DNA of 64,000 nt from Ignavibacteriales bacterium. Its GTDB lineage: Bacteria; Bacteroidota; Ignavibacteria; T3Sed10-11. Within the stretch, counting starts at the first letter, position 1, and each line of letters opens with the position of its first letter. The DNA lies in contig PWXV01000058.1 of NCBI GenBank assembly GCA_003568415.1, positions 1,952-65,951 of the forward strand. The letters run 5' to 3'. Below the pieces are notes generated by a model. The model searched no databases and was not told the DNA's origin. It worked only from the letters and a program-made list of their open reading frames with translations. A program made the position numbers and the translations under genes. Positions 33,058 to 53,762 of this stretch are shown in pieces.

Positions 33058-33073
33058 GAGGAATAAGGATAGT

Positions 33074-36000: not shown

Positions 36001-36472
36001 TGACGGTCAGATGACGATGGAGCAACAGGCACAGATGGCGCGGTTAGCGGGAGAGCAGGAAGCGGTTCGCCGGTCGCTTGAAGAACTTCAACATGAAATG
36101 GAGGGTAGAGGCGCCCGCGAAAGAATCCTCGGTGATCTCGACCGGATCGAAGAGGATATGCGTGAGGTGGTGAGCGGTTTGTCTGCTGATGAACTGCAGC
36201 CTGAAACTATACGACGGCAGGAACGAATTCTCAGCCGTTTACTCGATGCCCAGCGCTCTATACGTGAACGCGATTATGAAGAGAGACGTGAAGGTGAAAT
36301 TGCCGATCAGATTCTAAGAGATAGTCCACCCGAAATCGATTTAACAACACAGGAGGGCCGTGACAGATTACGTGAGGATATGCTTCGCGCAGTACGCGAG
36401 GGATATTCACGCGACTATGAACAATTGATACGACGATATTTTGAATTATTGCAGGACATTGAACAAGAGTAA
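33074..36472 (+). CDS. 1132-aa membrane protein: 2 N-terminal TM helices, beta-rich domain, ~550-aa Q/E/M-rich coiled-coil (DUF4175-like?)
   Basis: Good RBS (AGAGGAA). Two TM helices at aa ~30-85. A long heptad-like region (…MQQGEMQDAKQQHGQIRQDLNQMQDNLARMQQSL…) and a Gly/Gln stretch (GGGQGGMQGFMQQLQNMAGQQQQ). Confidence 0.65.
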   Translation: MSPHRVSEIEKTISKKLHALRKKDERLNLLSGALLVAGAFIASFGLLSILEGLFYFPAAVRTGLVFGAAIIVAILGIIFLVKPLLVSVGVLKRKNDLDLAHIAGKHFPAIKDRLYNLLQLAEDRKSGTLRYSAELIDASYSDLADEVEKNDFNQSITFTKPIQIGRSVLYGCIFLGILFLISPQYFGDAVYRVAHFGEEFETPQAFALSIEPGDIETVRGDSVTIRVHVEGDPQPEISLYTRQEGQVDFEKFVIDDPSGAAFTYPINQIRRTTEYYAARKDQKTPQHKITVHDRPTVRNLNVTLNYPSYTALPARTLDDDTGNITAIRGTRATVEILSNKELAEATIVFREYDDVEMDVEGNKARAQFTVNNDDRYHIDLQDTGEIRSADPVEYQIRMVEDEYPLITIVEPGRDKNIDENLRVPMMFRIQDDYGFTRLQLGYKLDESRYEPAHEEYTYIDIPISSGASNDEIVEYLWNVRDHMSLAPEDVVSYYAVVYDNDTVSGPKRGESETYVFRLPSLDEVFAEMDRQQSESREDLEYSAEEAELLKRELDDIRKELQLAQHEMNWEREQRMKDMLDRYEELQQNLEQMGQDLDEMIDDMQRHDVLSPETLEKYLELQELYQQLSDPEFKKAMEKLREAMDKMDPNQLREAMQDMTFNEEQFRQSLDRTLNLLKRVQIEQKVDELLKRAEQMVEEQHAVEDELDAMDEADTEATQQLDQQLDDLKQQLERMKEELADLQDRMEEFPTEMPLDDLQKTMDDMDAAGMEQKIDQMKQQMQQGEMQDAKQQHGQIRQDLNQMQDNLARMQQSLLEDQMRQIVNEMRRALRNINDLSKRQERLRDETRSLEPNSQLFRDNARKQSEVRSDLSSVVDDLVSLSQKTFAITPEMGRAIGRSFQQMEEALDRLNARSGNQASRQQEGAMASLNDASLLLQQSLQAMMEGGGQGGMQGFMQQLQNMAGQQQQINLETGELGDGQMTMEQQAQMARLAGEQEAVRRSLEELQHEMEGRGARERILGDLDRIEEDMREVVSGLSADELQPETIRRQERILSRLLDAQRSIRERDYEERREGEIADQILRDSPPEIDLTTQEGRDRLREDMLRAVREGYSRDYEQLIRRYFELLQDIEQE

Positions 36473-36489
36473 TATAACTAATAAAGTAC

Positions 36490-38646
36490 ATGCCTGATCT
36501 GTCACTTGCATTACAAACGAGTCCGGTATTATTCGGTCTTCTTGCGTTGATTATTGCAGCGGTATCATATTTTATATACCGTGTAACCGTTCCGCCTATT
36601 CCCGGTGGCTTAAAGACTGTATTAATATTTTTACGCACCGCCGGTCTTATCGCAGTTTTAATGATATTTTTCGAACCGGTGCTCACCGTTGTTACCCGTT
36701 CCGAAACTCCCCCGCGTGTTGCATTAATGGTTGATAATTCAAAGAGTATGCGCCTGGTCGACGGTGCCGGTGACCGTGCCGGAATCCTTGACCGTGTGCT
36801 CAATAATGAAGTATTCAACAGTCTGGATAGACAAAACAAACTAACCACTATATCGTTTGCCGGTGATGCCGGTATGCTTGAAACTTTTTCACCCGATAGT
36901 TTTCAACTCGACGGTTCTGCAACAAATATCGATGCCGCATTGAAAAAATTACGTGAAGTGCGTGAACGCGAGAATATCAAACTCGGGGTTCTGATCTCCG
37001 ATGGTAATTATAATGTCGGTCCCCGTCCTGTGTATGAAGCAGAACGTCTCAACATACCGCTGTTTACTGTGGGAATTGGTGATTCACTTGAACAAAAAGA
37101 TATATTGATTTCACGGGTCATAGCAAATGAGATCGCGTACCTCGATACCGAAGCACCGGTTGATGTTCGGGTGCGCAGTTCAGGATTCGGCGGCGAGCGA
37201 GTTGCGGTTACCCTCTCGGACGACGACACAGTCATTGAAGAAAAGACCATTACACTCGAAGACGGTACCGCCGATTACGAGCTATCGTTTTCATTCCAAC
37301 CCGAAGAAGAAGGCGTGCAGAGATACACGGTAAGTGTACAGGAGATGCCCGGTGAAGTTACCCATGAAAATAACCATCAATCGTTTTATGTTACTGTGCT
37401 CGACCGTAAAGTTCAGGTATACCTGCTTGCCGGCGCACCAACGCAGGATCTCACCTTTCTACGGCGAACGCTATATAACGACGAAACAATTGATGTGACT
37501 ATGTCGGTGTTGGGAGCGGGTGGTGCCGTTATCGGCGGGGAGCCGACCGAGTCCCGCCTGCGTGAAGCAGATCTGATTGTTCTTGTAGGATTTCCGACAG
37601 AGGAAACACCATCATCATTAATTAATGATGTTCAAGCAATAATTGAAGACGAAAACAAACCGGTATTGTTTCTCGAAAATATAACAGCCGATGTGCAGCG
37701 AATTGATGATTTGCTTCCGGTTGCGATTGAGCAGACTCGTCGAGAGGAACATCAAACATTTGTTAACGTTCCGGAAGCACAAGCGGGGCATTCATTATTC
37801 CGCATAGGAGAAGAACGGAAAACCGTCCGGTGGGAAGCATTACCTCCGGTATTCAGGACGATGCATCGCTATGCAGTGCGTCCCGGCTCGGAAACAGTAA
37901 TGACTCATCGCTTACAAAACACACCGCTCGACGATCCGTTTCTTGTAATACGCTCGGTCGGGGGCAGAAGATCGGCAACCATACTTGGATATGGGATATG
38001 GCGCTGGAGAATGATGGGACGCGGAGATGTTGACGGTGTTGCAGTATATGATAATCTGATGTATAATCTCGTGCAATGGTTGACCACCGATGAAGATCAG
38101 GATCGTGTACGCATCACCGCATCCAAAGAACAGTATCATACAGGCGAAGCAATAGAATTTACAGGGCAGGTATACGATGAACAATACCGGCCGCTCGCAA
38201 ATGCCGAAGTCCGGGTAACCGTGCACTCCGATGATGAAACATTCGAAACAGTATTATCACCCCGTGGTCATGGAAGATATGAAGGATCATTAAATCCATT
38301 GCCAGAGGGAGATTATGAATATGTCGGCTTTGCGGAGTTTGAGGGTGCGGATGTCGGCGAAGACGATGGTCGATTTATGGTGGGAGAGCTAAATCTGGAA
38401 TTTCGCGATACAAGAATGCATATACAAATAATGAGACAGTTGGCTGCGATTACCGGTGGAGATTTCATACATTCCGGTGAACCGGAAAAACTTGAGGAAA
38501 AATTGCGTGAAATCGATACGTATGAAGCGAGAATCGAGACTGCCTCGGTGGATTATCAAGTCTGGAATTTACCCGCTGCTCTTGCGGTTTTGATATTATT
38601 CTTCAGTATTGAGTGGTTTCTCCGGAAAAGAAATGGTATGTTATAA
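36490..38646 (+). CDS. BatA_N (aerotolerance-regulator N-terminal) + von Willebrand factor A domain membrane protein
   Basis: N-terminal LFGLLALIIAAVSYFIYR plus a second TM. vWA with MIDAS DNSKS...S...T...D (VALMVDNSKSMRL...GVLISDGNYN). C-terminal TM (LAVLILFFSIEWFLRKR). Starts 17 nt after the upstream gene. Confidence 0.75.
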   Translation: MPDLSLALQTSPVLFGLLALIIAAVSYFIYRVTVPPIPGGLKTVLIFLRTAGLIAVLMIFFEPVLTVVTRSETPPRVALMVDNSKSMRLVDGAGDRAGILDRVLNNEVFNSLDRQNKLTTISFAGDAGMLETFSPDSFQLDGSATNIDAALKKLREVRERENIKLGVLISDGNYNVGPRPVYEAERLNIPLFTVGIGDSLEQKDILISRVIANEIAYLDTEAPVDVRVRSSGFGGERVAVTLSDDDTVIEEKTITLEDGTADYELSFSFQPEEEGVQRYTVSVQEMPGEVTHENNHQSFYVTVLDRKVQVYLLAGAPTQDLTFLRRTLYNDETIDVTMSVLGAGGAVIGGEPTESRLREADLIVLVGFPTEETPSSLINDVQAIIEDENKPVLFLENITADVQRIDDLLPVAIEQTRREEHQTFVNVPEAQAGHSLFRIGEERKTVRWEALPPVFRTMHRYAVRPGSETVMTHRLQNTPLDDPFLVIRSVGGRRSATILGYGIWRWRMMGRGDVDGVAVYDNLMYNLVQWLTTDEDQDRVRITASKEQYHTGEAIEFTGQVYDEQYRPLANAEVRVTVHSDDETFETVLSPRGHGRYEGSLNPLPEGDYEYVGFAEFEGADVGEDDGRFMVGELNLEFRDTRMHIQIMRQLAAITGGDFIHSGEPEKLEEKLREIDTYEARIETASVDYQVWNLPAALAVLILFFSIEWFLRKRNGML

Positions 38647-38728
38647 AGTTATTTTGGAACAAAATTCCTTTTTTTGTAAATTATAATTCACAATATTAAA
38701 TTACATATTCTGTTGGGGCGATTTGCAA

Positions 38729-39754
38729 GTGAAAAAGATAATTAGTGTTGTATGCATTGTTTTATTGTTGCCTGCCTCCGCCGGCGCGGGTGGTTTTGGT
38801 GTGGGGAAATATGCCGGTGAATTTATGTCCATTGGTGTCGGAGGCCGTGCACTCGGTTTAGGCAGTGCTTATGTGGCTATTGCTAACGATGTCACTGCCG
38901 GTTATTGGAATCCTGCCGGACTTTCGCGAATTACCTATCCTGAAATAATCCTGATGCACGACGAACGTTTCGGCAATCTGATGAACTATGATTACGGAGC
39001 GGTTGCCCTACCGTACGGGTCTGATGCCAGTATTGGTATTAGTGTCATGCGACTCGGTATCGATGGAATTCCGGATACCCGGGATGCATTGGTCGACTAT
39101 ACCGGCGGCGGGATCCTTGATGCTGCTGCACGCCTTGATTACGATCGAATAACTGAACATAGCTGGGCCGACTGGGTTCTATACCTTACCTACAGTAAGC
39201 GACATAGTGATCGTCTCTCGTATGGATTTAATGTCAAGTTGGTGCGCCGTGATTTTATGGAATTCCATGCCACCGGTATCGGCTTTGATGTAGGCTTGTG
39301 GTATAACCCGACCGGCAATCTATTTCTCGGTCTGAATGCACAGGATATTACAACGACACTGGTGGCGTGGAATACCGGAACGAACGATCTTATTTCACCG
39401 ACGTTAAAGGTAGGCAGCGGTTATATGTTTGATGTACCCGGTGGTCGATTGATACCGCTTATAGATCTGGATTTTCGATTTGAGAACCGTCAATTTGCCT
39501 CGAACATGAGTCTCGGTCCGGTGAGTGTGGACTTTCACGGTGGGCTTGAATACAGTGTTCGCAATCTATTTGCTCTCCGTGCCGGGTATAATGATATCGG
39601 TAACCTTACTTTTGGTGCAGGGATTCATTTACCGAAACTTGATCTCGATTATTCATTCGCACAATTCGATGGCACCGGTCAACTTGGTAATACGCATCGC
39701 ATCTCATTGCGCATTACCTTATCCGAAGACCGCTTTGCCAGAAAAACTGATTAA
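38729..39754 (+). CDS. FadL/PorV/PorQ-superfamily outer-membrane beta-barrel protein
   Basis: Signal peptide followed by a GxxAxGxGxAxxAxxxDxxAxxxNPAGL signature (GGRALGLGSAYVAIANDVTAGYWNPAGL), then alternating beta-strand pattern. ~340 aa, which is a PorQ-like size. GTG start at 38729 (the track's TTG is at 38723). Confidence 0.55.
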   Translation: MKKIISVVCIVLLLPASAGAGGFGVGKYAGEFMSIGVGGRALGLGSAYVAIANDVTAGYWNPAGLSRITYPEIILMHDERFGNLMNYDYGAVALPYGSDASIGISVMRLGIDGIPDTRDALVDYTGGGILDAAARLDYDRITEHSWADWVLYLTYSKRHSDRLSYGFNVKLVRRDFMEFHATGIGFDVGLWYNPTGNLFLGLNAQDITTTLVAWNTGTNDLISPTLKVGSGYMFDVPGGRLIPLIDLDFRFENRQFASNMSLGPVSVDFHGGLEYSVRNLFALRAGYNDIGNLTFGAGIHLPKLDLDYSFAQFDGTGQLGNTHRISLRITLSEDRFARKTD

Positions 39755-40452: not shown

Positions 40453-42660
40453 TCACTTGGATTCCATCACTGTGTAACCATCCCAGTCAGCGGGTGGCGG
40501 ATTCTCGAGAAATGCTTGTGAACGTTCAAGATAGATCTTGCCGGGAATATCGTGGGGATATTTCTGTGTTAATTCGTTAAAATATTCTATTGCTTCTTTC
40601 CACTGGCGGTTACGATACAATCTGATTCCCTCATTGTATAATTCAGTAATTTTGTGGTCATCATCAGAAATGCTGTCGTCCCGCATGCCGATTAATTCAT
40701 AAATGGTAGTGCCTTCTGTTTTTCCCTTGACGACGATAGTATCCAACTCGCGCACGACAACGGATTCCTGAACATACTGATAGGTGTTCTGGCTGATTAT
40801 GATATTTGTTCCGTAATATTTATTCGCCGCTTCCAGACGTGCTGCAAGATTCACGCTGTCACCGATTACCGTATAATCGAATCGTTCTTTGCCGCCCATA
40901 TTTCCCACAATCATATCGCCGGTATTGATCCCGATCCTGACGTGCATTTTTAAATGTTTTTTTCTTGCGGTGTGATCTTCCCGTAATTTATTCAATGTTT
41001 TCTGCATTTGAATCGCAGAAAAGCAGGCAAGATATGGATGGTCGGGGAGTGAAATCGGAGCGCCCCAGAATGCCATTATAGCATCACCTTCATATTTATC
41101 AAGTGTTCCTTTGTTCTTAATAATTATATCGGTCATTGCATCGAGATACTCATTCAAAAGTTCCACGAGTTTTTCGGGTGGAAGACCTTCTGAGATAGAC
41201 GTAAATCCCGCTATATCGCTGAAGAGCACCGTCAATTCCTTTTTCTCACCACCGAGCCGAAGTTTATCCGTGTCGCTGAGCAGTTCATTCACGATTGCCG
41301 GACTCACATAATGACTGAAAATAGATTTGACGATTTCCTTTTGTCGACGCTCGGTTAAATATTGATGAATTGCAGATCCGAAATAGCCGAGAATAAGGGC
41401 TGCAACCGGTCCGATAACGGGTGTGATTACTTGCTGATTTATAAAGTACCAATTACCGAGGTAGAATACTAAATAAATTGCTCCCGCGGTTATGAGAATT
41501 GCAGCAAATTCCAGTATATATTGATGACGGAATTTAACTGCTTTAATAACCGAAATAAGCATAAATAGTATAAATGCAGTGGCTATGACAATGAGTGCAC
41601 CTGACGTTTCAGACGTCGGTTTAAGATAGTTATCATCGATCATTGCCTGTATCATATTGGCGTGAATTTCAACACCATACATCTCGTTAAAATCGGGAGT
41701 TCCCTCGGGATGGACAGGAGTAGAGTGAAGGTCCTGTGATTCGGGAAACACAGGGCCTATGAGCACGACCTTGTCTTTAAACGGATTGGTCTCAACGAAG
41801 TCGTAAAATATATCAAGGTCTACACCGTACCGGAGTTCGTCAAGGGTTGTAAATGTTTCATCGTCAATGACATCGATAAGGTCAAACTTGGTAAACGTAC
41901 CCGAAGGTCCGTAGTAATTAATATGCGTTGTTTCGGCGGTGCGGGGTATGATTCGTTTCCCGAGTATGAATGCATGCTCGCGTATCTGAGGCTGGGTGAG
42001 TGCATCACGTCCGTCATAGCGATTTAAGACTGCTGTACCGAACGACGGCATCATACGTGCACCGCCATGAGTAAACATTGAAACCGGATACCGACGAATC
42101 ACACCATCGGGATCTTTACGCATCTGCACGAAACCCAGTGAGCTGTCCGCTTCAAAGAATATATTACCGAACATATCACCTTCTTGAACGATAACTGCTT
42201 CAACTTCCCCGCGGCGTTCGATACCGCGGATCACACCTGCAAGCACAACATTGCCCGCATCTTTTATTTCATCGAAGAGTAATGCATCCTGCTGTGGGTC
42301 ATGGTAAGATGGAGTATCAAATATAAGGTCGATGCCGATAACTTTAGCGCCAAGTCTGTCGAGATTACGGATTGCACGTGCATAATAATCCCGGGGAAAG
42401 GGATATGGATCGGGAGCAAGTTCGAAACTTTCACGGGAGATGCCGACGATGACAACGTCGAGATCCGTCCCGTCACGTGCAAGCGGTCCGCGTTGATCGA
42501 ACCGGTAGTCAATACTTGCAAGATGGAGTTTATGAAATAATCCAAAATGATAGAATGTATCCTGAACAAAGGTGGTTACCAGGATGCCGATGCATAAACC
42601 GATGATAAGTCTTTGAATCCAATCTTTACTGCCGGTGATTTTTAATTTCTTTTCTATCAT
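40453..42660 (-). CDS. CHASE2 sensor domain-containing class III adenylate/guanylate cyclase
   Basis: N-terminal TM, a periplasmic CHASE2-like region, four TM helices, then a cyclase catalytic core (LTVLFSDIAGFTSISE...KYEGDAIMAFWGAP...GINTGDMIVGNMG) and a C-terminal TPR-like tail. Confidence 0.85.
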   Translation of the reverse strand: MIEKKLKITGSKDWIQRLIIGLCIGILVTTFVQDTFYHFGLFHKLHLASIDYRFDQRGPLARDGTDLDVVIVGISRESFELAPDPYPFPRDYYARAIRNLDRLGAKVIGIDLIFDTPSYHDPQQDALLFDEIKDAGNVVLAGVIRGIERRGEVEAVIVQEGDMFGNIFFEADSSLGFVQMRKDPDGVIRRYPVSMFTHGGARMMPSFGTAVLNRYDGRDALTQPQIREHAFILGKRIIPRTAETTHINYYGPSGTFTKFDLIDVIDDETFTTLDELRYGVDLDIFYDFVETNPFKDKVVLIGPVFPESQDLHSTPVHPEGTPDFNEMYGVEIHANMIQAMIDDNYLKPTSETSGALIVIATAFILFMLISVIKAVKFRHQYILEFAAILITAGAIYLVFYLGNWYFINQQVITPVIGPVAALILGYFGSAIHQYLTERRQKEIVKSIFSHYVSPAIVNELLSDTDKLRLGGEKKELTVLFSDIAGFTSISEGLPPEKLVELLNEYLDAMTDIIIKNKGTLDKYEGDAIMAFWGAPISLPDHPYLACFSAIQMQKTLNKLREDHTARKKHLKMHVRIGINTGDMIVGNMGGKERFDYTVIGDSVNLAARLEAANKYYGTNIIISQNTYQYVQESVVVRELDTIVVKGKTEGTTIYELIGMRDDSISDDDHKITELYNEGIRLYRNRQWKEAIEYFNELTQKYPHDIPGKIYLERSQAFLENPPPADWDGYTVMESK

Positions 42661-45074
42661 ATATCATAACGAAGCATAAGTTGCGATACCATATCATTCC
42701 GGGCATCCGGATTCAGGAGGTAATCTGCCTGAAACACGACCGAGAGGTTTCGCATAAAATAATACTGTGCTCCGGCTTGGAAGATCGTCCGGTTATAATC
42801 GCCGAATGTCGGAATAAACGATGCATTGATTCTAAGATCGTCTTCGAGAAACCGGTATTCACCGCCGAGGATAATGTTATAGTAATCAAAATTGGTTTGA
42901 ACAAATTGTCCCTGACCGTTGTCTTCTTCAGGAGCTTGAAAGAAAGGAATTTTACTGTGATACATACCGAGACCGATTGTTGTTCGGAGCGGCAGGTCGT
43001 CAAAACGGCTGTTCACCATAGCAATTACATTATAGATATCAACGTCTGCGTCACGGTCTGTTTGATCATCACGAAGTGACATATTAAATGAAATTGAACC
43101 GTTGTGATGTGCCCGCCAGAAAAAGTTATGGGATAATTGAGTGAAAAACCGGTTTGTGACATCGCGTATCGCCATCGGTTCCATCAGTGCGACATTATTA
43201 TCATTTTTATAATATCCATATCCTACAGAAATAGACGGAAAATCGCGTCGCGGATAATATGAAACAGAAGCATCATATCTGTTAAAATGAGTTGTATGGG
43301 CCTTCGTATCGTGCAGGTTGTCACGTAAACTTTCCACAGAGACGTCAAAGTATAATTGATTTTCCATTACCCTGAGCCGATCGCGTACTCGTATACCGGC
43401 CACATCGCGTCTGAGGGCAGCCAATCCGAATGAATTATAATCGTTCCCCCGTCTTATGTATCCGATTTGTAAATTGTTCCCGAAATAATTTAACCGCAAA
43501 TTAAGATCCATGGCAAGGGATGATAGTTGTGTTGGATCGAATGGAACGAGGTATTGATTGACGGTGATAAAACTCTGTAACGTTGACAATGAGATAACAT
43601 CCTCAAGCTGTTCCACAGCGCCGCCACCCATCAACTCATCCAGCTCTTCGCGTGTAAGATTGCCCCGTGATATATCGGTGTTTTGCATGCTTCCTGCAAT
43701 TTCACCGACGAACTGTATTCTTCGGCGGTCAAGTGATACTCGCAAGTCGCTGCCGACAACCAGATTTTCAGCAGGCCGTCTGCCGAACTCCACCGAACCT
43801 ACATCGTCTTGTGAATGAAGATAGGTAAAACCTATTTGAACAAAATCACGGCTGCCAAAACTTGGTCTGATTGCTGTTAATGTCCGTGTATGAGTTCCAA
43901 ATCTAAATACTGCATAGGTAGAATCATCGACGAGGATGCTGTTGGAGGGAGGTTGAATTGCAAAACCGTCCTCATCAAATGCTGCTATACGATCCAGCTC
44001 ATTTCCTTCAACGCCGCGTATTGTCTGTCCTGTTGCATATTCAAGATTAAACCACCCCAGTTCAAGTTCGCCGAAGAAACCGCGAAGACGTCGTCCGTTC
44101 ATAATTAAAGATGGAAAACGCGGATAAGTATCACCGGCGTGAAGTCGAAGCCAGGGCATTTCGGCTGAGAATGAATACCGGTTCTGTGGCTGCCTGAAAC
44201 TGCGTTCTTCATTTGTTACATGAAGATTCGAGCGAAAACGTACCCAGGGTAACCGTCCGTCGAAGGTAACCGTACTGCGATTATACCATGTCGATGCACC
44301 TCCGAACGATTCGTTGCGGGATTCACCTCGCATTGAAACATCATAGCGAAAATCCTGGGTAACGGGATCGATTGTGGGTACACCGGTTAAATTAAACCTC
44401 CAGGAAAATGAGTGAACTTCACCGGTATTTCTTTCTTGCAATGCTAACCGGATTGTTTGTTGGCCGCCCGGTAATTCGAGTCCATCGATATTTGCAGGAA
44501 CGGCGATGAGTATATCACCGGAGATTATTGTATGGCCTGTTATATCCTTGTCACTGATGAAGACCTGTGTTTCGTCTTTAGTATATTTGTCAGGAAGTTC
44601 GAAAAGTGATACCGAAACAACGAGATCCTGAAACTCGACGGTTTCATTTTCCTGGGGACTGAGGATTATAATTTCATCCCGTAACCGTGTTACCGATGTA
44701 ACCGGTGCCATTTCGGGATGATACTCAGGATCGGTTACCGGATAGGTATGTTCTGAACCATCATTGGAAATAAGTTTAATGTAATATTCAATGTGAGGAG
44801 GTGACACATTCTCTTCGGGTATAACGGCAGTAGCCGAATTTCCGGCGACGGTCATCTCAATCGGGGTATACTCGGATGAACCGAATTGCCGGTACATTAA
44901 AAATATTTCCTGAATTCCTCCAGCGCGTATTAGGTCAACGCGAATTTCAAGTGAGGTTTCTTCAGTTGCTTCCTGATGGTGAACGGATAGAAAATAATCG
45001 GATGGCTGCGCACTACTATACAATGAAGCAGACACCGAGATAACAATGATAAAAAATGCGCGGGGGATTCGCAT
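42657..45074 (-). CDS. 805-aa predicted outer-membrane protein (signal peptide + N-terminal domains + beta-rich C-terminal region)
   Basis: Strong RBS (GAGGAGG). Signal peptide MRIPRAFFIIVISVSASLYSSAQ. Aromatic-rich alternating pattern throughout the C-terminal 550 aa. Overlaps the cyclase start by 4 nt. Confidence 0.55.
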   Translation of the reverse strand: MRIPRAFFIIVISVSASLYSSAQPSDYFLSVHHQEATEETSLEIRVDLIRAGGIQEIFLMYRQFGSSEYTPIEMTVAGNSATAVIPEENVSPPHIEYYIKLISNDGSEHTYPVTDPEYHPEMAPVTSVTRLRDEIIILSPQENETVEFQDLVVSVSLFELPDKYTKDETQVFISDKDITGHTIISGDILIAVPANIDGLELPGGQQTIRLALQERNTGEVHSFSWRFNLTGVPTIDPVTQDFRYDVSMRGESRNESFGGASTWYNRSTVTFDGRLPWVRFRSNLHVTNEERSFRQPQNRYSFSAEMPWLRLHAGDTYPRFPSLIMNGRRLRGFFGELELGWFNLEYATGQTIRGVEGNELDRIAAFDEDGFAIQPPSNSILVDDSTYAVFRFGTHTRTLTAIRPSFGSRDFVQIGFTYLHSQDDVGSVEFGRRPAENLVVGSDLRVSLDRRRIQFVGEIAGSMQNTDISRGNLTREELDELMGGGAVEQLEDVISLSTLQSFITVNQYLVPFDPTQLSSLAMDLNLRLNYFGNNLQIGYIRRGNDYNSFGLAALRRDVAGIRVRDRLRVMENQLYFDVSVESLRDNLHDTKAHTTHFNRYDASVSYYPRRDFPSISVGYGYYKNDNNVALMEPMAIRDVTNRFFTQLSHNFFWRAHHNGSISFNMSLRDDQTDRDADVDIYNVIAMVNSRFDDLPLRTTIGLGMYHSKIPFFQAPEEDNGQGQFVQTNFDYYNIILGGEYRFLEDDLRINASFIPTFGDYNRTIFQAGAQYYFMRNLSVVFQADYLLNPDARNDMVSQLMLRYDI

Positions 45075-45122
45075 TACCTCCTCGGTTAGTACTGATGAAT
45101 AATAAGTTATAGAGAATTTACA

Positions 45123-45872
45123 TTATTGATCTGTTTTATCTTCTTCGTATTCAATGATTAATGTTCGTGGATTTCCATCCTCATCCATAGTACGAATCTC
45201 GATAGTTCTCTGCTGCCGTTCACCAGGTGTATCGTCTAACTCATCGCCCGGTTCTCCGTATTCTTCGAGATCATCATCGGTAAGCTCACGTTTTTCTAAG
45301 TTCCCGTCGGAGAATGAAAATGCAATTTCACCGCCATATACTTCAATCTCTTCGCCCGTGATCCTATTGAGAAACATAGCGAGCCCGGTTACCATCAACA
45401 GTACGTCCGCTTGGCCCGGTCTAACGATTAGTATCCCGGTCGAACCGCGAATCGATGCGACCGAAGTAGGCGTTGAGAATTCAAACCGGTCGGCTTCTTT
45501 TTTCCTGACATCGAAACTAACCGAACCCTCATCTACTTCAATATCACGATGATAGTTATCGCGGTCCCGGTCTGCATAGACAGTAACCTCTGATAATTCA
45601 CGAACACGAAGTAAACTGTTATCGTAAAATCTGATTAATGAAAACGATCCTGCTCCTGTTTTGACGATATCGCCTGAATTAAGCAGGTCACCGATCTTTG
45701 CCGTTTGCCAATCAATCTCGGGTGATCGGCGCTCCACTATTTCAACAACCCGGTTAACCAGGGCAATCGTTGGCCGCTCATCGTTATTTTCATTCTCGCC
45801 GGCTCCTACAATATCCCCCGGAAGAGCCAGCCAAAAAGCCAAAAGAACTGTTGTCAGTAATATAGTACGCAT
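45123..45872 (-). CDS. FecR-domain protein (secreted)
   Basis: FecR-like beta-sandwich motif GDIVKTGAGSFSLIRFYDNSLLRVRELSEV. ATG at 45872 gives the signal peptide MRTILLTTVLLAFWLALPG; the track's TTG start is at 45905. Confidence 0.7.
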   Translation of the reverse strand: MRTILLTTVLLAFWLALPGDIVGAGENENNDERPTIALVNRVVEIVERRSPEIDWQTAKIGDLLNSGDIVKTGAGSFSLIRFYDNSLLRVRELSEVTVYADRDRDNYHRDIEVDEGSVSFDVRKKEADRFEFSTPTSVASIRGSTGILIVRPGQADVLLMVTGLAMFLNRITGEEIEVYGGEIAFSFSDGNLEKRELTDDDLEEYGEPGDELDDTPGERQQRTIEIRTMDEDGNPRTLIIEYEEDKTDQ

Positions 45873-45908
45873 AATATAAATCCCCTGTGTTAGATTTCCA
45901 TCCAATTA

Positions 45909-47087
45909 TTATTCCTGAAATGAAACATTCAAAATTTCCGGATTGTTGACGCCGGCACGAATTGCATTGATAACCATCTGGAGTTCCTCGCCTGTGATTT
46001 GTGAACCATCGAGGAATATTTGTTCAATGTCTTCGTAATTCCCCCGCTCGATTTCTTCGACAATATGTGGGTGTCGTTCTTCAAGTAATTGCCGGAGTTC
46101 GATCCACAAAACATTTCGTGCACTTTCGTGTGCCGGATCCACCACCGTGAAGGTATGCAGATCGCTTAGAATCCCTTCTTCTCTGTTTGCGCTGGTTTTA
46201 TACAATCCTTCGAGATACCATACATATTGCATGCCGGGTTCCAGTGCTCTGACGCCTGCTCCGGTTTGTGGATAGGTCAGTTGATTGTTATTGGAAACTC
46301 TCTGTTCGAGGTGCGGAATTCCTGTTATTGCTTCCTCAGGAGAGCGAACACCGGGACGTTTCTCAAATACACGCAGTACAACTTCACGGGTATCCGAGCG
46401 CCATTGGAAATGCGGAAACTGTGAAACGATTCGGGCACCATCCATAGGTGTTAATAACTCAACCCGTGTTGGATTTATAATATGGAGCTCTCTTGATATT
46501 TGATCAAGCATTGTTCTCGGTTGATATGGCTCGGTATCACGTTCAGTATAATAGGCAGTCAGTGTGAAGGTGTAAATACCATCGGGAACCCGTGACGTAG
46601 CCCGGATTGCATCAACGATATCCTGTGCATGGCCCGAATTTCCGGAGATATCGATAGTCTCGGATCTATACAGTTCAAGCCGGCCGCCCTGACCGAGATC
46701 GCGGCTGGTGAAAAACCGTGGTTGATTTGCTTCAAGACTGATCGGTTTTGTTAATCCCGAAAAGAGTTCAACCTCACCCTGCGCAACCTCGGTATCTGCA
46801 GTCAGGTCAATGCCGAACATAATGTTTGCAGGTTGATCCGATGTGATATTCATAGAAAAAAATATCGGGCTCTGTGGTGATAGTACCAGATTTTGGAGGT
46901 TAAATGCAACATCGCCAATATAAAATACATCCACATCAATAACCTGTGCACTAAATGTGATGTTTACATTGGGATGTGGTTGTGCTTGTACCTGTTGATG
47001 AGAACCACCTGCCAACAGTATGCCTAGCAGGCACAACGCTATGGTTCCCCTGATAAAAGAATTAAACATCGAATTACGCAGCCGCAT
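45909..47087 (-). CDS. hypothetical secreted protein
   Basis: ATG at 47087 preceded by AAAGGGGG. Signal peptide MRLRNSMFNSFIRGTIALCLLGILLAGG. No recognised domain. Ends 3 nt before the FecR-domain gene. Confidence 0.5.
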   Translation of the reverse strand: MRLRNSMFNSFIRGTIALCLLGILLAGGSHQQVQAQPHPNVNITFSAQVIDVDVFYIGDVAFNLQNLVLSPQSPIFFSMNITSDQPANIMFGIDLTADTEVAQGEVELFSGLTKPISLEANQPRFFTSRDLGQGGRLELYRSETIDISGNSGHAQDIVDAIRATSRVPDGIYTFTLTAYYTERDTEPYQPRTMLDQISRELHIINPTRVELLTPMDGARIVSQFPHFQWRSDTREVVLRVFEKRPGVRSPEEAITGIPHLEQRVSNNNQLTYPQTGAGVRALEPGMQYVWYLEGLYKTSANREEGILSDLHTFTVVDPAHESARNVLWIELRQLLEERHPHIVEEIERGNYEDIEQIFLDGSQITGEELQMVINAIRAGVNNPEILNVSFQE

Positions 47088-47217
47088 AATTGCCCCCTTT
47101 TTCAATTAAAATAATGGTCATACTAATTTTTGACCTTGCTTTAGTAGTTTCATACTACTATATAGTTATATGAAATCACCTTTATCTGCCGTGTTTTAGA
47201 GCACAGTGTGATGGTTG

Positions 47218-48534
47218 TCACAATCGCATAATGTCATTATAGATGACAAACGCCATTAAGGCAAGTATAAGCACAAATCCTATTTGTTGCAATGCAATTT
47301 GTACTTTTGCAGGTACCTCTCTACCGACGATCATTTCATACACCAGATACATCAGATGGCCGCCATCCAGCACCGGGAACGGCAGAATATTGATGAATGC
47401 AATCATAATACTGAGCAATCCGACAAAGGATAAAAATGAAATGATTCCCGCTTGTGCAGTTTGAGAAGCGAGATTTGCAATCATAATCGGACCACCCACA
47501 TTTTCACTGAATGACAGGGTTCCCGTAATCATCATCCAGATTGATCGAAGCAATAAACCGAGCATTTCAAACATATCGTTTAATCCGGCAGGTATTGCTG
47601 CGAAAAATCCGTACTGAATGTGATGTACGGGGCCGGTATATTCTCTGCCGATCCCAATACCAATGCGTCCCTCATCCGTGGGGATGACACTCCCCATAAG
47701 AACCTCACCGTTGCGTTCCCATTCAATGGTTATTTCCTGTCCGGCATGTGCTGATATGATCTGAATTACCTGCTGTTCGTTTGTGATCGGTTCACCGTTT
47801 ATGGTGACAAACCGGTCGCCCGCCTCCATACCGACTTCCTCTGCAGGTGAACCTGACATCACCTGTGTAGCCACAGCTCTGGTATGTTGCTGTACCATAC
47901 CGAATTGTTCCTGGGGTGAGGAAATGTTTTCACGTGCAGGCAGCGTAAGGGTTTGCTGAACACCTTCACGTTCTACAACGAATGTTATCTCCTGGCCGAT
48001 TGCTTCGGCGTTAACAACCCGCTGGACTTCGCCCCAGTGTTTGATTTCCCGGTTGTTTATTTGAAGTATTTGATCCTCCGGCTGCAATCCGGCCATATAT
48101 GCAGGAGATTCCGGTGCAACATACCCGATCGTTGTGGTATCTTCAACATGTTGTCCCTGGGTGAAATTGATGCCCCAGAAAATCATGACGGCAACGATTG
48201 CATTCATCAAAACACCGGCGCTAATAACGAACATTCGCTGGTATATCGGTTTCGACCGGTATTCCCAGGGTTGGGGTTCCTGTTTTTGAAATTCGGTATC
48301 CAAACTTTCATCAACCATACCGCTGATCTTCACATATCCGCCGAGCGGAATAAGTGCCAGGGTATATTCTGTATCGCCGTATTTTTTACTGATAAGTTTC
48401 GGTGGAAAACCAATTGAAAACTTTTCAACGCGCATGCCACACAGTTTTGCTGCAAGAAAATGCCCGAGTTCGTGGACAAAGATAATTATTCCGATTGTTA
48501 TCAAAAAGTAAAAAACGGCAGAAAGTATATCCAT
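47218..48534 (-). CDS. rseP: RIP metalloprotease RseP (site-2 protease with PDZ domains)
   Basis: HELGHF zinc motif in TM1, two PDZ-like regions, and a C-terminal LDGG motif. ATG at 48534 lies 4 nt after the dxr stop; the alternative ATG at 48558 would overlap dxr by 20 nt. Confidence 0.85.
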   Translation of the reverse strand: MDILSAVFYFLITIGIIIFVHELGHFLAAKLCGMRVEKFSIGFPPKLISKKYGDTEYTLALIPLGGYVKISGMVDESLDTEFQKQEPQPWEYRSKPIYQRMFVISAGVLMNAIVAVMIFWGINFTQGQHVEDTTTIGYVAPESPAYMAGLQPEDQILQINNREIKHWGEVQRVVNAEAIGQEITFVVEREGVQQTLTLPARENISSPQEQFGMVQQHTRAVATQVMSGSPAEEVGMEAGDRFVTINGEPITNEQQVIQIISAHAGQEITIEWERNGEVLMGSVIPTDEGRIGIGIGREYTGPVHHIQYGFFAAIPAGLNDMFEMLGLLLRSIWMMITGTLSFSENVGGPIMIANLASQTAQAGIISFLSFVGLLSIMIAFINILPFPVLDGGHLMYLVYEMIVGREVPAKVQIALQQIGFVLILALMAFVIYNDIMRL

Positions 48535-48538
48535 AAAA

Positions 48539-49702
48539 TCACTCGCTCCTTCGATCATTTTGTATTAAAGACCTTACACGCTTGCGCGTTTCACGGTCTG
48601 TTTCTTCTATAACGTGTAATGACGGATTCATAATAGTTGTATGATCGTTCATTGCTTGTTCAATATATGCAGGGATCTGCATAAATGTAATTTCATTATT
48701 TAAAAACGCATGGACGGCTATTTCATTTGCCGCGTTTAACACCGTCGGCATCGTGCCGCCTGCCTGCATTGCCTCAAGCGCTAACCGGAGACAGGGAAAC
48801 TGTTTCATATCCGGTTCTTGAAATGCCATTGTACCTGTCCTGGTAAAATTTACCCGTTCAAAACTTGATACCGTACGTTCGGGATACGTGAGCGCATATT
48901 GGATCGGTATTTTCATATCCGGTACACCCAGTTGTGCTTTGACCGATCCGTCTATAAATTCCACCATCGAATGAATGATTGATTGCGGATGTATGACAAC
49001 CTCGATTTTATCGGCCGGAATCCCGAACAAATGGTGTGCCTCAATTACTTCGAGACCTTTATTCATAAGCGTGGCCGAGTCGATGGTTATTTTATTGCCC
49101 ATTTTCCAGTTCGGGTGATTCAGAGCCTCATCAACGGTGACCGTTTCCAACCTTTCAATCGGTGTGTTGAGGAATGGACCTCCCGATGCAGTGAGGATTA
49201 CCTTGGCGACCGTTGCGGGGTCTTCACCTATCAAACACTGCAAAATTGCACTGTGTTCACTATCGACCGGAATTATTGAAACATTGTTTTCATGTGCCAG
49301 TGTCATTATAAGCTCGCCGGCAACGACTAATGTCTCCTTATTTGCCAGGGCAATGGTTTTTCCGGCTTTAATGGCCTTTATAGTTGGCCGAAGCCCGGCA
49401 AATCCGACAAGGGAACTGATTACAATATCCGTGTCATCGCGCTGCACGATTTCTTCAACGCCCTCTAAACCGGTGAGGATTTCGGTCGTGCCATTGACCA
49501 GCTTTTGCAGGACCGATGCGGCACAATCGTCAATAACTGCTACACCCCGCGGATTATATTGCGCAATCTGCTTTTCGAGCAGATTAATATTTTTATTCGC
49601 AATTAAATATGAAACCCTGTACCGATCCGGATTTTGTGCAATAACATCAAGACTGCTTGTTCCGATAGATCCTGTGGATCCCAGAATTGCTATATTTTTC
49701 AT
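48539..49702 (-). CDS. dxr: 1-deoxy-D-xylulose 5-phosphate reductoisomerase
   Basis: N-terminal NADPH fold MKNIAILGSTGSIGTSSLDV and the Dxr catalytic region (LANKE...DSEHSA). Confidence 0.9.
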   Translation of the reverse strand: MKNIAILGSTGSIGTSSLDVIAQNPDRYRVSYLIANKNINLLEKQIAQYNPRGVAVIDDCAASVLQKLVNGTTEILTGLEGVEEIVQRDDTDIVISSLVGFAGLRPTIKAIKAGKTIALANKETLVVAGELIMTLAHENNVSIIPVDSEHSAILQCLIGEDPATVAKVILTASGGPFLNTPIERLETVTVDEALNHPNWKMGNKITIDSATLMNKGLEVIEAHHLFGIPADKIEVVIHPQSIIHSMVEFIDGSVKAQLGVPDMKIPIQYALTYPERTVSSFERVNFTRTGTMAFQEPDMKQFPCLRLALEAMQAGGTMPTVLNAANEIAVHAFLNNEITFMQIPAYIEQAMNDHTTIMNPSLHVIEETDRETRKRVRSLIQNDRRSE

Positions 49703-50287: not shown

Positions 50288-51517
50288 ATGCAGTTTTTAC
50301 AGAGGATGTTGATTTTTGCGATGGCACTATTTATTGTAAAATCAGGTGGAGTTACAGGTGTCGCACAGGCAGAGGATAGTCCTTCACTACACGTTGGAGG
50401 AGCGGTACGATATAATATCCTTTTAGCGAGTTATGAAAGCGATATCGACGCAAACAGCTCCCAGTTTACGTGGGATACCTGGCGGGTAAATGTTATATAC
50501 GATAATCCGGGTGGAATCGGTTTAAATTTTGAATATCGTTTTTACCCGACATTCGGTACGCATTTCATCAAACAAGGTTGGCTGCAATACGATTTTTCAG
50601 AATCCACACAAATGCAGCTTGGTGTAACGCAAACCCCGTTTGGCAATCTTCAGTACAATTCACATAACTGGTGGTTCAGTCTTCCGTATTATGTTGGCTT
50701 GGAAGACGACCATGATATGGGTGTAAAGATAACCCATCATTCCAGCAACTGGCAATGGGATTTCGCGTATTTCTTCCAACCGGAACCTGAAGGCCCATCA
50801 TTTGGCGGCGAATCAAACTTTGGTTTTGGCGGTGCAGGCCGGTATTCATACGATGTGATACCCGGTGGAAACGCATCATTGACAGAAAGAAATCAATTTA
50901 ACGTTCGCGGTGCTTATCAGTTTGACGGCGGTGAGATTGGTGCATCGGTTCAGTTCGGACAACTCTACAGTCAAGCACTGGATCAATTTGACAGCAGATA
51001 TGCCTTTGCCGTTCACGGACGCTTCACCTCCGGTAACTGGGGAATTCTTCCGCAATTCTTATATTACGGCTATGATGCATTCGATAATGACGGAAATGAA
51101 ATTTCCACCGTTTATATGGGTGCTTATGGTATTCCCTATGAAGTATCGACTGAAGCATGGATTGCCACACTTGGTATATCCTACTCGTATGATGTTGATT
51201 GGGGTCCTATTACAAACCTGATGTTCTATAACGATTTCAGTTATATGGAAAATCAAGTTGGTGAGGGTACTACCCAGCTTGCAAGCGGAGAATCACTTAC
51301 TCTGACCGATAATTTTCAATCCACAATACAAAATATCACCGGGTTTCTGGTTTCTGCCGGACCGGTATTTACCTATTTCGATATCGCACAGGGTATTAAT
51401 CAACCCTGGCTGACCGATGCATTTGGTGTTGGTGTAGGGCCAGGCCATGAAGATCTTGGACTTGGTGACTCAGAATACAATATCCGATTTAACATCAATA
51501 TCGGATTCTATTTCTAA
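50288..51517 (+). CDS. putative outer-membrane porin (beta-barrel, C-terminal Phe)
   Basis: AAGGAGG RBS. Signal peptide ...GVAQA. Alternating hydrophobic/aromatic pattern, ending NINIGFYF. Heads the osmolyte-transport cluster. Confidence 0.5.
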   Translation: MQFLQRMLIFAMALFIVKSGGVTGVAQAEDSPSLHVGGAVRYNILLASYESDIDANSSQFTWDTWRVNVIYDNPGGIGLNFEYRFYPTFGTHFIKQGWLQYDFSESTQMQLGVTQTPFGNLQYNSHNWWFSLPYYVGLEDDHDMGVKITHHSSNWQWDFAYFFQPEPEGPSFGGESNFGFGGAGRYSYDVIPGGNASLTERNQFNVRGAYQFDGGEIGASVQFGQLYSQALDQFDSRYAFAVHGRFTSGNWGILPQFLYYGYDAFDNDGNEISTVYMGAYGIPYEVSTEAWIATLGISYSYDVDWGPITNLMFYNDFSYMENQVGEGTTQLASGESLTLTDNFQSTIQNITGFLVSAGPVFTYFDIAQGINQPWLTDAFGVGVGPGHEDLGLGDSEYNIRFNINIGFYF

Positions 51518-52411: not shown

Positions 52412-52424
52412 TCTAACGTAATTC

Positions 52425-52460: not shown

Positions 52461-52490
52461 TAATCCGTGAAAAACATTACAAAGAAATTT

Positions 52491-53741: not shown

Positions 53742-53762
53742 TTTTTTAAAGGAGATTGAGAG

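Follow-up and report, generated by a model that had tools for sequence, protein, structure and literature searches.

A conserved four-gene module combining a predicted outer-membrane barrel, a FecR-domain protein and a CHASE2 adenylate cyclase

Described systems with FecR domains and CHASE2 receptors

In Sinorhizobium meliloti, the outer-membrane protein NsrA is required for perception via the CHASE2 cyclases CyaK, CyaD1 and CyaD2. As far as PMC7529298 describes this system (Garnerone et al. 2018, J Bacteriol 200:e00019-18), the NsrA-dependent signal is external and proteinaceous and raises cAMP. NsrA is a single polypeptide of 1200 aa, in which a FecR domain is followed by TPRs and a barrel at the C-terminus; the nsrA and cyaK genes overlap by 1 nt. 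In Fec-type signalling, the N-terminal periplasmic domain of an outer-membrane barrel contacts a FecR-family domain that controls the inner-membrane or cytoplasmic output, and FecR domains act as protein-protein signalling adaptors in the systems studied (PMC11637429). FecR-domain proteins are also encoded next to CHASE2 receptors. Burkholderia BiofilmReg combines a LysM-FecR protein with a CHASE2 histidine kinase, P. aeruginosa has the FecR-CHASE2 pair PA4035/4036 (PMC5192318), and the FecR-type MtxA of the magnetotactic M. gryphiswaldense is paired with a CHASE2 cyclase (PMC4439547). The S. meliloti FecR-domain protein SMc02177 is encoded at cyaD1, and signal perception did not depend on it in the assay employed (PMC5498481). 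Finally, a cAMP cluster of the Campylobacterota, proposed as one pathway from synteny, comprises a CHASE2 adenylate cyclase, a phosphodiesterase, a FecR-domain protein of the outer membrane and a protein with TPRs (PMC9239204). This literature (PMC5498481, PMC5192318, PMC9239204, PMC4439547) bears out the statement in an earlier, sequence-only reading of the locus analysed here that CHASE2 cyclases pair with FecR-domain proteins.

The four genes and their predicted products

The locus lies in a stretch of 64,000 nucleotides from an Ignavibacteriales bacterium (the window). The ORF list gives four frames, all on the minus strand as previously read, at 40453-42660 (735 aa), 42657-45074 (805 aa), 45123-45905 (260 aa) and 45909-47105 (398 aa). 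When the longest start is taken, the 260-aa and 398-aa frames both begin from TTG. The latter has an in-frame ATG (M7) at 47087, where the database homologues begin, and its database homologue P0121 is 392 aa long and 100% identical. For the FecR gene, the ATG at 45872 (M12) is the more probable start over the TTG at 45905, because the alignment with the homologue of locus L006 begins at M12. With these starts, the features are as follows.

45909..47087, minus strand: gene 1, 392-aa predicted secreted protein (alternative TTG start at 47105)
45123..45872, minus strand: gene 2, 249-aa predicted periplasmic FecR-domain protein (alternative TTG start at 45905)
42657..45074, minus strand: gene 3, 805-aa predicted outer-membrane protein (signal peptide and AlphaFold model)
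44388..44993, minus strand: two N-terminal Ig-like domains of gene 3, aa 28-126 and 136-229 (secondary structure of the model)
42660..44348, minus strand: predicted beta-barrel of gene 3, aa 243-805 (DSSP on the AlphaFold model)
40453..42660, minus strand: gene 4, 735-aa predicted inner-membrane receptor adenylate cyclase (Pfam, hydropathy, PDB match)
41569..42549, minus strand: CHASE2 sensor domain of gene 4, aa 38-364 (PF05226, flanked by predicted TM helices)
40705..41244, minus strand: class III cyclase catalytic domain of gene 4, aa 473-652 (PF00211, E 4e-26)

With the longest-ORF starts, the intergenic distances are 3 nt, 48 nt and then a 4-nt ATGA overlap, exactly as claimed before; the start at 45872 changes the first gap to 36 nt, which is operon-like even so. 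Strong Shine-Dalgarno sites had been claimed for all genes. They are present 5' of the 392-aa gene (AAGGGGG), the FecR gene (AGGGGA) and the 805-aa gene (GAGGAGG), but not of the cyclase gene. Its start overlaps the stop of the barrel gene, which suggests that cyclase translation is coupled to that of the barrel gene. Among the neighbouring genes scanned, there is no gene for a cAMP receptor or a phosphodiesterase near the module.

The 735-aa protein matches CHASE2 (PF05226, E 1e-46, 160 bits vs a cut-off of 26.3, residues 38-364) and the catalytic family Guanylate_cyc. Hydropathy predicts hydrophobic segments at aa 14-36, 354-372, 381-399 and 411-429. The resulting layout is TM1 (14-36), CHASE2, three TM helices (354-429), the catalytic domain (473-652) and a C-terminal TPR-like segment (aa 674-704) that scores below the Pfam cut-off. 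This predicted TM-CHASE2-3TM-cyclase topology is that of a CHASE2 receptor and would place the CHASE2 domain in the periplasm. A catalytically competent class III homodimer has two metal-binding Asp residues together with a transition-state Asn and Arg. Lys and Thr as substrate-defining residues stand for class IIIb and ATP, while guanylate cyclases carry Glu and Cys/Ser/Gly. Among PDB entries, CyaB of P. aeruginosa (3r5g, E 4.7e-39) matches best, and alignment to it gives D482 and D526 as metal-binding, K522 and T597 as substrate-defining and N604 and R608 as transition-state residues. In the two substrate columns, K and T are found in the adenylate cyclase CyaB, but E and G in the guanylate cyclase Cya2 (2w01). 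All six catalytic residues are invariant in 70 module-linked cyclases bar one T-to-S change, so that the substrate-defining pair is K in 70/70 and T in 69/70. Because K522 and T597 define class IIIb, the product of gene 4 is, judged by its residues, a class IIIb adenylate cyclase and not a guanylate cyclase. The choice between the two specificities, for which these residues had been proposed as the check, is thereby settled.

The FecR domain of the second gene is clear (PF04773, E 4.3e-12, 46.7 bits vs a cut-off of 24) and spans residues 80-167 of the 260-aa ORF. The protein has a single N-terminal hydrophobic segment, a signal peptide without lipobox cysteine, and an acidic C-terminus with a conserved hairpin-like motif; in 73 homologues, conservation covers the FecR core and this motif (about aa 222-242). 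The KSB1 homologue also carries an MtxA_N domain. We rejected a FecR-type anti-sigma factor: Pfam and NCBIfam searches gave no anti-sigma domain match, the cytoplasmic anti-sigma domain and the TM helix of full-length FecR are missing, and the neighbours scanned include zero sigma-70 family ECF genes.

The 805-aa protein belongs to a predicted outer-membrane family without annotation in any library searched (Pfam, NCBIfam, PDB). Indeed, it has zero Pfam and NCBIfam matches, and the PDB sequence search returned none to the barrel. With over 224 homologues at E values reaching down to 0, and 2652 cluster representatives of its family at E<=1e-3, the sequence comparison tells us that the genes of the module are real. 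Hydropathy gives a cleavable signal peptide (likely site SSA↓QPS) and no internal hydrophobic helix. The AlphaFold model (pLDDT 85.6) consists of the signal peptide, two N-terminal Ig-like beta-sandwiches and a large beta-barrel of about 26 strands, counted by DSSP on the model, with a 54-residue helical insert within barrel loop 6 (aa 466-519). Because the Ig-like domains are placed before an even-stranded barrel, we infer from the model that they are periplasmic. Separately, the Ig-like domain recurs 18-20 times in two giant proteins. The barrel connections alternate between long and short, as extracellular loops and periplasmic turns would, read from secondary structure only. Conservation is highest in the loops L2, L3, L7 and L8 (0.69-0.77 vs 0.55 for strands), and the chain ends with Ile or Leu in place of the classic Phe. 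With these features the protein conforms to the general picture of an outer-membrane beta-barrel, a localisation predicted from the model. The outer-membrane relay of the sequence-only reading would have fallen if the protein were cytoplasmic or an unrelated enzyme; signal peptide, lack of an internal hydrophobic helix and barrel model speak against both.

The closest structural matches of the model are MtrB and the FimD usher, and Foldseek agrees that the best matches are outer-membrane barrels only. MtrB is the 26-strand sheath that encloses MtrA in Shewanella MtrCAB, while FimD/PapC is the chaperone-usher pore that passes pilus subunits. We rejected membership of the MtrB/PioB or fimbrial usher families: Pfam gives no match, the structural-alignment identity is about 10%, TM-scores reach at most 0.5, and no decahaem cytochrome, pilin or chaperone genes accompany the module in any locus inspected. 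On the model, the resemblance is only one of fold class and barrel size, not of family. A TonB-dependent transducer or receptor was rejected as well, with no match to the plug PF07715, to PF00593 or to STN at E<=0.1 in Pfam and NCBIfam, and with about 26 strands and Ig-like N-terminal domains in the model instead of a 22-strand barrel.

Pfam and NCBIfam searches with the first protein (392/398 aa) also gave zero matches. It has one N-terminal hydrophobic segment with likely cleavage at VQA↓QPH; from its sequence it is possibly signal-anchored instead of secreted. Its AlphaFold model (pLDDT 75.9) contains FN3/Ig-like beta-sandwich domains and a C-terminal helical segment. A jackhmmer search from this protein among 1001 ORFs found the ORF directly upstream of FecR in 73/73 loci and one truncated copy, with no other matches; the gene in this position is thus always a family member. 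The family HMM matches the equivalent genes of KSB1 (4e-27) and Fidelibacterota (8e-14). Gene 1 is the fastest-evolving gene of the module and was found in Ignavibacteria only through profile search.

Synteny and relation to the described systems

We analysed the synteny in 80 species-level genomes, with 76 loci evaluable for gene pairs and 72 for all four genes. The complete set is found in the same order in 66 of the 72 loci, mostly from Ignavibacteria. The cyclase follows downstream of the barrel gene in 73/76 loci, and the FecR gene stands directly upstream of the barrel gene, again in 73/76. A genome of the candidate division KSB1 has the identical four-gene order, which establishes the synteny across phyla, and a Fidelibacterota locus keeps genes 1-3 with no adjacent cyclase. 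The proteins of both are 31-40% identical or lower, and their flanks are unrelated; within the sample too, the genes flanking the module differ from locus to locus. Synteny in relatives, on which the four-gene interpretation of the sequence-only reading depended, is therefore what we see. In the loci inspected, neither cytochrome, pilin, chaperone or other cargo genes nor transporter, binding-protein or catabolic genes are conserved beside the module. The pair dxr-rseP adjoins it in six loci, so neutral linkage occurs here. Because three Ignavibacteriaceae loci and the Fidelibacterota locus have genes 1-3 without an adjacent cyclase, the products of these genes may also serve a function by themselves. 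One clade retains barrel and cyclase alone; the FecR and FN3-like proteins are therefore not always needed in cis.

The closest precedent of the module is NsrA–CyaK. In both systems, the gene for a CHASE2 class III adenylate cyclase directly follows a barrel gene and overlaps it (here by 4 nt), and both systems contain a FecR domain. Aligned over 90% of its length, the cyclase of the window shares 28% identity with CyaK. The overlapping-gene context is common to both systems but is no proof of NsrA family membership. FecR is fused in NsrA and a separate 249-aa protein here, the periplasmic part is TPR in NsrA and two Ig-like domains in the 805-aa protein, and some NsrA barrel homologues match PF00593, the TonB-dependent receptor barrel. 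Moreover, the NsrA system has no counterpart of the FN3-like gene, and its hosts are alpha-proteobacteria, whereas the module is found in the FCB group. A tblastn search with the 805-aa protein against all plasmids including pSymB gave no match, and hhalign of the family profile gave probabilities of 0.1 against NsrA and 0.17 against the alignment of NsrA barrel homologues. With a different architecture and no sequence similarity detectable by tblastn and hhalign, we rejected the 805-aa protein as an NsrA family member. Because the barrels are not detectably homologous, the analogy is one of architecture, not of descent. As a functional precedent, NsrA–CyaK lowers the novelty of the module.

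With the Fec systems (FecA/FoxA, FecR/FoxR, ECF sigma), the module shares the FecR domain and the logic of barrel, FecR and output. It differs from them in that the 805-aa protein has no detected plug, TonB-dependent receptor barrel or STN domain, that the module's FecR protein lacks anti-sigma domain and TM helix with no ECF sigma gene nearby, and that cAMP synthesis takes the place of regulated proteolysis and transcription as output. The FecR-CHASE2 pairs likewise encode a secreted FecR-domain protein beside a CHASE2 receptor, but have no dedicated barrel or FN3-like gene, and their outputs vary between histidine kinase and cyclase. Compared by description, the Campylobacterota cluster shares the CHASE2 adenylate cyclase and a FecR-containing outer-membrane protein, in which FecR is fused and not separate as here; it has a phosphodiesterase and a separate TPR protein, whereas the module has no phosphodiesterase and carries a TPR-like segment at the cyclase's cytoplasmic end.

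A possible trans-envelope relay and its alternatives

We consider it fairly probable that the four genes form one functional unit, an envelope-spanning sensory complex with cAMP as output. The outer-membrane barrel of about 26 strands, with its two periplasmic Ig-like domains, would detect an extracellular or outer-membrane cue, acting jointly with the soluble periplasmic FecR-domain protein and the secreted FN3-like protein. The FecR-domain protein would hand the signal on to the cyclase's CHASE2 domain in the periplasm, from where a conformational change would traverse the four-helix membrane region and the juxtamembrane linker and switch the homodimeric class IIIb catalytic domain to convert ATP to cAMP. 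The protein contacts, the direction of signal flow, the cue-binding component and the cue are those we infer; as a whole, the proposed trans-envelope relay has good support in the predicted localisation, the synteny and the analogy.

Alternatively, the barrel, FecR and FN3-like proteins could build an outer-membrane conduit or surface-display machine, modelled on an MtrB/MtrA-type sheath, an usher-like secretion pore or threading as of RcsF in OmpA/C/F. The CHASE2 cyclase would then not sense a ligand from outside but monitor assembly or occupancy and report envelope integrity or assembly stress as cAMP. In its favour, MtrB as the sheath of MtrA and FimD as an usher for pilus subunits are the top structural matches, and the conservation of L2, L3, L7 and L8, not of strands, fits inward-folding loops or a grip on a conserved partner. 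The conserved C-terminal hairpin-like motif of the FecR proteins could dock by strand addition, four loci keep genes 1-3 without a neighbouring cyclase, and the fast evolution of gene 1 is as expected of a surface-exposed protein. However, at the low identity and TM-scores given above the likeness is one of barrel size, Pfam supports neither usher nor MtrB, cargo genes are not conserved alongside in the loci inspected, and the loop topology is read from secondary structure only. We therefore regard this machine as unlikely, if worth keeping in mind.

cAMP is classically tied to carbon-source control, which would suit an 805-aa protein serving as a nutrient channel or uptake porin beside a cyclase that is a separate, co-transcribed sensor of nutrient status, with no signal from barrel to CHASE2. 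Yet the lock to FecR and a CHASE2 receptor in at least three phyla, with all flanks changing, is unexpected for a co-regulated porin, and conserved transporter, binding-protein or catabolic neighbours are missing in the loci inspected. FecR domains act as signalling adaptors where studied (PMC11637429), and the NsrA barrel works, in the description of PMC7529298, in perception and not in uptake. A porin is thus quite improbable. Already disfavoured, and hardly credible to us, is the view that the adjacency is inherited gene order and that the four proteins act independently. It is true that most of the data stem from Ignavibacteria, a single class in which some gene order is kept by vertical inheritance alone, and that dxr-rseP is an example of neutral linkage. 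Still, the order reappears in KSB1 and, in part, in Fidelibacterota at low identity and with unrelated flanks, the genes overlap or abut, and alpha-proteobacteria and Campylobacterota independently brought together the same set of domains with another barrel (PMC9239204).

Returning to the sensory complex, the module has been conserved in several bacterial phyla, and it probably conveys a cell-surface signal into cAMP synthesis by means of a so far undescribed outer-membrane protein family. Tentatively, one may speculate that CHASE2 does not itself bind a ligand but is a docking module for secreted FecR-domain proteins which carry information from outer-membrane barrels inward, and that non-homologous barrels were recruited independently by different lineages. 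If this is true, the barrel taken up by alpha-proteobacteria is the TonB-receptor-like one of NsrA, in fusion with FecR and TPR, while the FCB group (Ignavibacteria, to which the window belongs, KSB1, Fidelibacterota) relies on a barrel not described before, with about 26 strands and Ig-like periplasmic domains, and on an FN3-like accessory protein. The conserved loops and the MtrB-like size would then allow a threaded or enclosed partner protein, and with a barrel that encloses a partner the module would be a sensor of surface display or envelope integrity and not a receptor for small molecules.

Gene order, surroundings and spread of the module

The ORF listing bears out the proposal of the sequence-only reading that the four module genes are co-oriented on the minus strand:

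40453-42660, minus strand: cyclase ORF (gene 4), 735 aa
42657-45074, minus strand: barrel ORF (gene 3), 805 aa
45123-45905, minus strand: FecR ORF (gene 2), 260 aa
45909-47105, minus strand: FN3-like ORF (gene 1), 398 aa

With the longest-ORF starts, the spacing is also as that reading gave it, with gaps of 3 nt and 48 nt and, at the third junction, an ATGA overlap of 4 nt. Its upper bound for the module, 47087, is an ATG seven codons inside the 398-aa ORF. This is the start used by the homologues in the databases, among them P0121, a protein of 392 aa that is 100% identical. For the FecR gene, the ATG at 45872 is the more likely start, because the alignment with the homologue from survey locus L006 begins at that residue; the first gap would thereby become 36 nt. 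The strong SD sites claimed for the module genes were found for three of them, namely AAGGGGG ahead of the 392-aa gene, AGGGGA ahead of the FecR gene and GAGGAGG ahead of the 805-aa gene. The cyclase gene has no ribosome-binding site upstream, and its start codon overlaps the preceding stop. Since the genes beyond the cyclase (DUF1684, a PorP/SprF-like protein and a Bat-like cluster) run on the opposite strand, the module ends there. Scans for sigma-70 promoters and intrinsic terminators gave no enrichment over shuffled sequences and do not define the transcript ends, and an Rfam search of the entire window returned no RNA element. The surroundings contain the following features:

47218-49702, minus strand: dxr and a gene for an RseP-like M50/PDZ site-2 protease, upstream of the module, 130 nt from gene 1
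50288-51517, plus strand: 409-aa ORF with no Pfam match, a signal-like N-terminus and the C-terminal end GFYF, immediately ahead of the osmolyte transporter genes
51548-59336, plus strand: dense compatible-solute transporter cluster with two OpuAC binding proteins, an ABC ATPase with a CBS domain, a permease and two BCCT transporters
32341-39754 and 60981-62765: Bat-like cluster (DUF4159, DUF4175, VWA-containing protein), PorP/SprF-like outer-membrane protein and an Exo_endo_phos (endonuclease/exonuclease/phosphatase-family) protein with a type IX secretion C-terminal sorting domain

The 409-aa ORF probably encodes an uncharacterised outer-membrane protein or porin. The transporter cluster is in keeping with a halophilic host, and L006 and L007, the closest genomes, are MAGs from soda-lake sediment. 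The Bat-like cluster, the PorP/SprF-like protein and the sorting domain together indicate that the host belongs to the FCB group, related to Bacteroidota, and has a type IX secretion system.

For the species survey, one genome per species was scanned with a 10-sequence barrel alignment, which furnished 80 loci, mostly from Ignavibacteria (Melioribacteraceae and Ignavibacteriaceae); the two soda-lake genomes are labelled Bacteroidetes. Synteny had been named as the check on the four-gene reading, and the order is indeed kept in most loci.

Gene order at the evaluable survey loci (tblastn)
Cyclase directly downstream of the barrel gene: 73/76
FecR directly upstream of the barrel gene: 73/76
Four genes in the same order: 66/72

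The synteny extends across phyla. In a KSB1 genome all four genes recur in this order and a Fidelibacterota genome carries genes 1-3 only, with gene 1 matching the HMM of the 392-aa family at 4e-27 and 8e-14, respectively, while the flanking genes vary between the Ignavibacteria, KSB1 and Fidelibacterota loci. Shorter versions also occur: one clade (L001/L065, L008, L009) has only barrel and cyclase, with the FecR and FN3-like genes absent at the locus, and three Ignavibacteriaceae loci together with the Fidelibacterota locus (L073, L080, L085, L087) have genes 1-3 without an adjacent cyclase. Cultured carriers are two Melioribacter isolates and Rosettibacter primus.

Properties of the four proteins

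The 735-aa protein matches CHASE2 (E 1e-46) and the class III cyclase domain (E 4e-26) in Pfam, and a TPR-like segment at its C-terminus falls under the Pfam cut-off. Hydropathy gives one helix ahead of CHASE2 and three behind it, which predicts a periplasmic CHASE2 and a cytoplasmic catalytic domain. Among solved structures, CyaB of P. aeruginosa, an adenylate cyclase, is the closest relative (3r5g, E 4.7e-39). Alignment to CyaB identifies D482 and D526 as the metal-binding aspartates, N604 and R608 as the transition-state residues, and K522 and T597 as the substrate-defining residues. K522 and T597 form the Lys/Thr pair typical of class IIIb adenylate cyclases, where a guanylate cyclase, Cya2 (2w01), carries Glu and Gly instead. 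Across 70 distinct module-linked cyclases all six residues are unchanged, save one Thr-to-Ser. Because the six residues match CyaB and stay invariant, gene 4 is predicted to encode an adenylate cyclase that is active as a homodimer. The question of ATP or GTP specificity, which the sequence-only reading had left to these residues, is thus settled in favour of adenylate cyclase, with K522 and T597 ruling out a guanylate cyclase.

The 805-aa protein has a signal peptide (predicted site SSA|QPS) and no internal hydrophobic helix. Sequence searches of its barrel against Pfam, NCBIfam and PDB gave no family match; the sole sequence match is a weak one between N-terminal domain 1 and the Ig-like domain of PPAD from P. 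gingivalis. In an AlphaFold model built with 44 homologues (pLDDT 85.6), two N-terminal beta-sandwich domains (aa 28-126 and 136-229) precede a barrel that spans aa 243 to the C-terminus, with 26 strands counted from the DSSP string. The connections alternate between short ones of 1-7 residues and longer ones of up to 54 residues, the usual sign of periplasmic turns and extracellular loops. The best structural matches of the model are MtrB and the FimD usher, a ranking that Foldseek repeats, with TM-scores of at most 0.5. On the model, the 805-aa protein is predicted to be a large outer-membrane barrel of an undescribed family, and the earlier assignment to the outer membrane agrees with both signal peptide and modelled barrel. 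The family has more than 224 close homologues, and a profile search recovered 2652 cluster representatives at E<=1e-3, of which 637 reach E<=1e-30.

Within this family, four predicted loops, extracellular or lumenal, are more conserved (0.69-0.77) than the strands (mean 0.55). These are L2 (aa 288-298), L3 (317-329), L7 (543-557) and L8 (586-595) of the barrel at window 42660-44348, and they include the near-invariant RQPQNRYS...GDxYPxFPSLIMNGxRxRG. This is unusual because surface loops are usually the most variable regions of outer-membrane proteins, and it points to loops that either turn inward into the lumen or contact a conserved partner. Ig-like domain 1 (window 44697-44993) also occurs 18-20 times in two giant database proteins, P0285 (3051 aa) and P0294 (4022 aa), the former of which also has PKD, Big_7 and beta-helix domains. 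A Gln directly follows the predicted signal-peptidase site in both the barrel (SSA|QPS, 45009-45074) and the 392-aa protein (VQA|QPH, 46980-47087), and the barrel family keeps A22 and Q23; the Gln in both proteins agrees with the Bacteroidetes 'Q-rule' of N-terminal pyroglutamate (PMC5837995).

The FecR protein matches PF04773 with 46.7 bits against a cut-off of 24, and nothing but a signal peptide precedes the domain. The protein lacks a lipobox cysteine, an anti-sigma domain and a membrane anchor, and a sequence comparison with PDB gave no match. As judged from these features, gene 2 encodes a soluble periplasmic FecR-domain protein rather than an anti-sigma factor of the FecR type. Classical cell-surface signalling uses RseP as the site-2 protease that processes such anti-sigma factors. 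The rseP gene next to the module was nevertheless set aside as a functional partner, given the missing anchor and anti-sigma domain and a linkage of dxr-rseP to the module in only 6 loci (L003, L006, L007, L032, L056, L069); this neighbourhood is probably neutral. The module FecR-domain proteins share a hairpin-like C-terminal motif (consensus KIxIKT...IEIEY, aa about 222-242), which comes after a variable acidic linker and lies within the last ~30 codons of 45123-45872. It is a possible docking element. In classical cell-surface signalling, the periplasmic domain of a FecR-family anti-sigma factor touches the N-terminal periplasmic signalling domain of the outer-membrane transducer (PMC11637429).

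For the 392-aa protein, Pfam, NCBIfam and PDB gave no family match. Its model (pLDDT 75.9) shows FN3/Ig-like sandwiches and a short helical C-terminal region. Plain tblastn picks the family up only in the nearest relatives, and BLASTP between the 398-aa protein and the 514-aa protein upstream of FecR in locus L004 was not significant (E 0.27). Iterative profile searching did reveal these two to be homologous: a jackhmmer search of 1001 ORFs, started from the window's 392-aa protein and with E-values calculated for a million sequences, settled on exactly the immediate upstream neighbour of FecR in 73/73 loci plus one truncated copy, and on nothing else. Gene 1 thus belongs to the module as a conserved component, although one that evolves fast.

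Precedents and competing readings

The earlier claim that CHASE2 pairs with FecR-domain proteins is well founded. Burkholderia and P. aeruginosa pair a LysM-FecR protein with a CHASE2 histidine kinase (PMC5192318), in magnetotactic bacteria MtxA is followed by a CHASE2 cyclase (PMC4439547), and S. meliloti cyaD1 is paired with SMc02177, which was dispensable for perception in the assay used (PMC5498481). The closest precedent is NsrA-CyaK of S. meliloti, where nsrA (pSymB) overlaps cyaK by 1 nt. In its 1200 aa, NsrA combines a FecR domain (aa 66-160) with TPR repeats and, at the C-terminus, a barrel; some homologues of this barrel have the TonB-dependent receptor barrel domain PF00593. Homology between the 805-aa protein and NsrA was rejected: tblastn against all plasmids gave nothing, and hhalign returned probabilities of 0.1 for the family profile against NsrA and 0.17 against an alignment of NsrA barrel homologues. 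The module resembles NsrA-CyaK architecturally, and probably also in its logic, without belonging to the NsrA family. Its barrel is unrelated by sequence, a protein of its own carries the FecR domain, Ig-like domains stand where NsrA has the TPR region, and the FN3-like protein is additional.

The best-supported reading, which we consider reasonably probable, is a trans-envelope sensory unit that ends in cAMP synthesis. This sustains the relay put forward in the sequence-only reading, which did not cite NsrA-CyaK as its functional precedent. The N-terminal domains or the lumen of the barrel would contact the FecR protein, which in turn would contact CHASE2. The analysis shows the gene set, the domains, the adenylate-cyclase residues, the predicted outer-membrane fold, the secretion signals and the synteny across phyla, whereas these contacts, the direction of signal flow and the cue are inferred.

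The main competing explanation holds that the cyclase monitors the state of a conduit or display machine made up of the three outer proteins. A barrel equal in size to MtrB and the ushers, the conserved loops, the C-terminal hairpin-like motif common to the FecR proteins and the loci without an adjacent cyclase would all suit such a machine, which we nonetheless judge unlikely. If the 805-aa protein were a plain nutrient porin and the cyclase unrelated to it, the data would be poorly accounted for, and we hold this to be quite improbable. A neutral gene order with no functional link fits the data poorly too, and is the least credible of all, at a very low probability.

Implications for CHASE2 receptors

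CHASE2 is a widespread bacterial sensor domain that was described in 2003. We know of no ligand for it, and to our knowledge NsrA-CyaK has so far been the only functional clue. In the module, an outer-membrane barrel, a FecR domain and a CHASE2 cyclase are locked together in distant phyla, here with a barrel unrelated to that of NsrA and with one further secreted protein. Because the same logic recurs in this way, the module argues for trans-envelope input via FecR-domain partners as a general mode of CHASE2 receptors. A signalling logic that was already known is built here, in another part of the bacterial tree, from two undescribed protein families without Pfam or NCBIfam models, the barrel family and the fast-evolving FN3-like family. 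The module is testable, since cultured carriers exist and cAMP output is easily read in an E. coli cya background, and it is relevant to what CHASE2 domains sense, a question of long standing.
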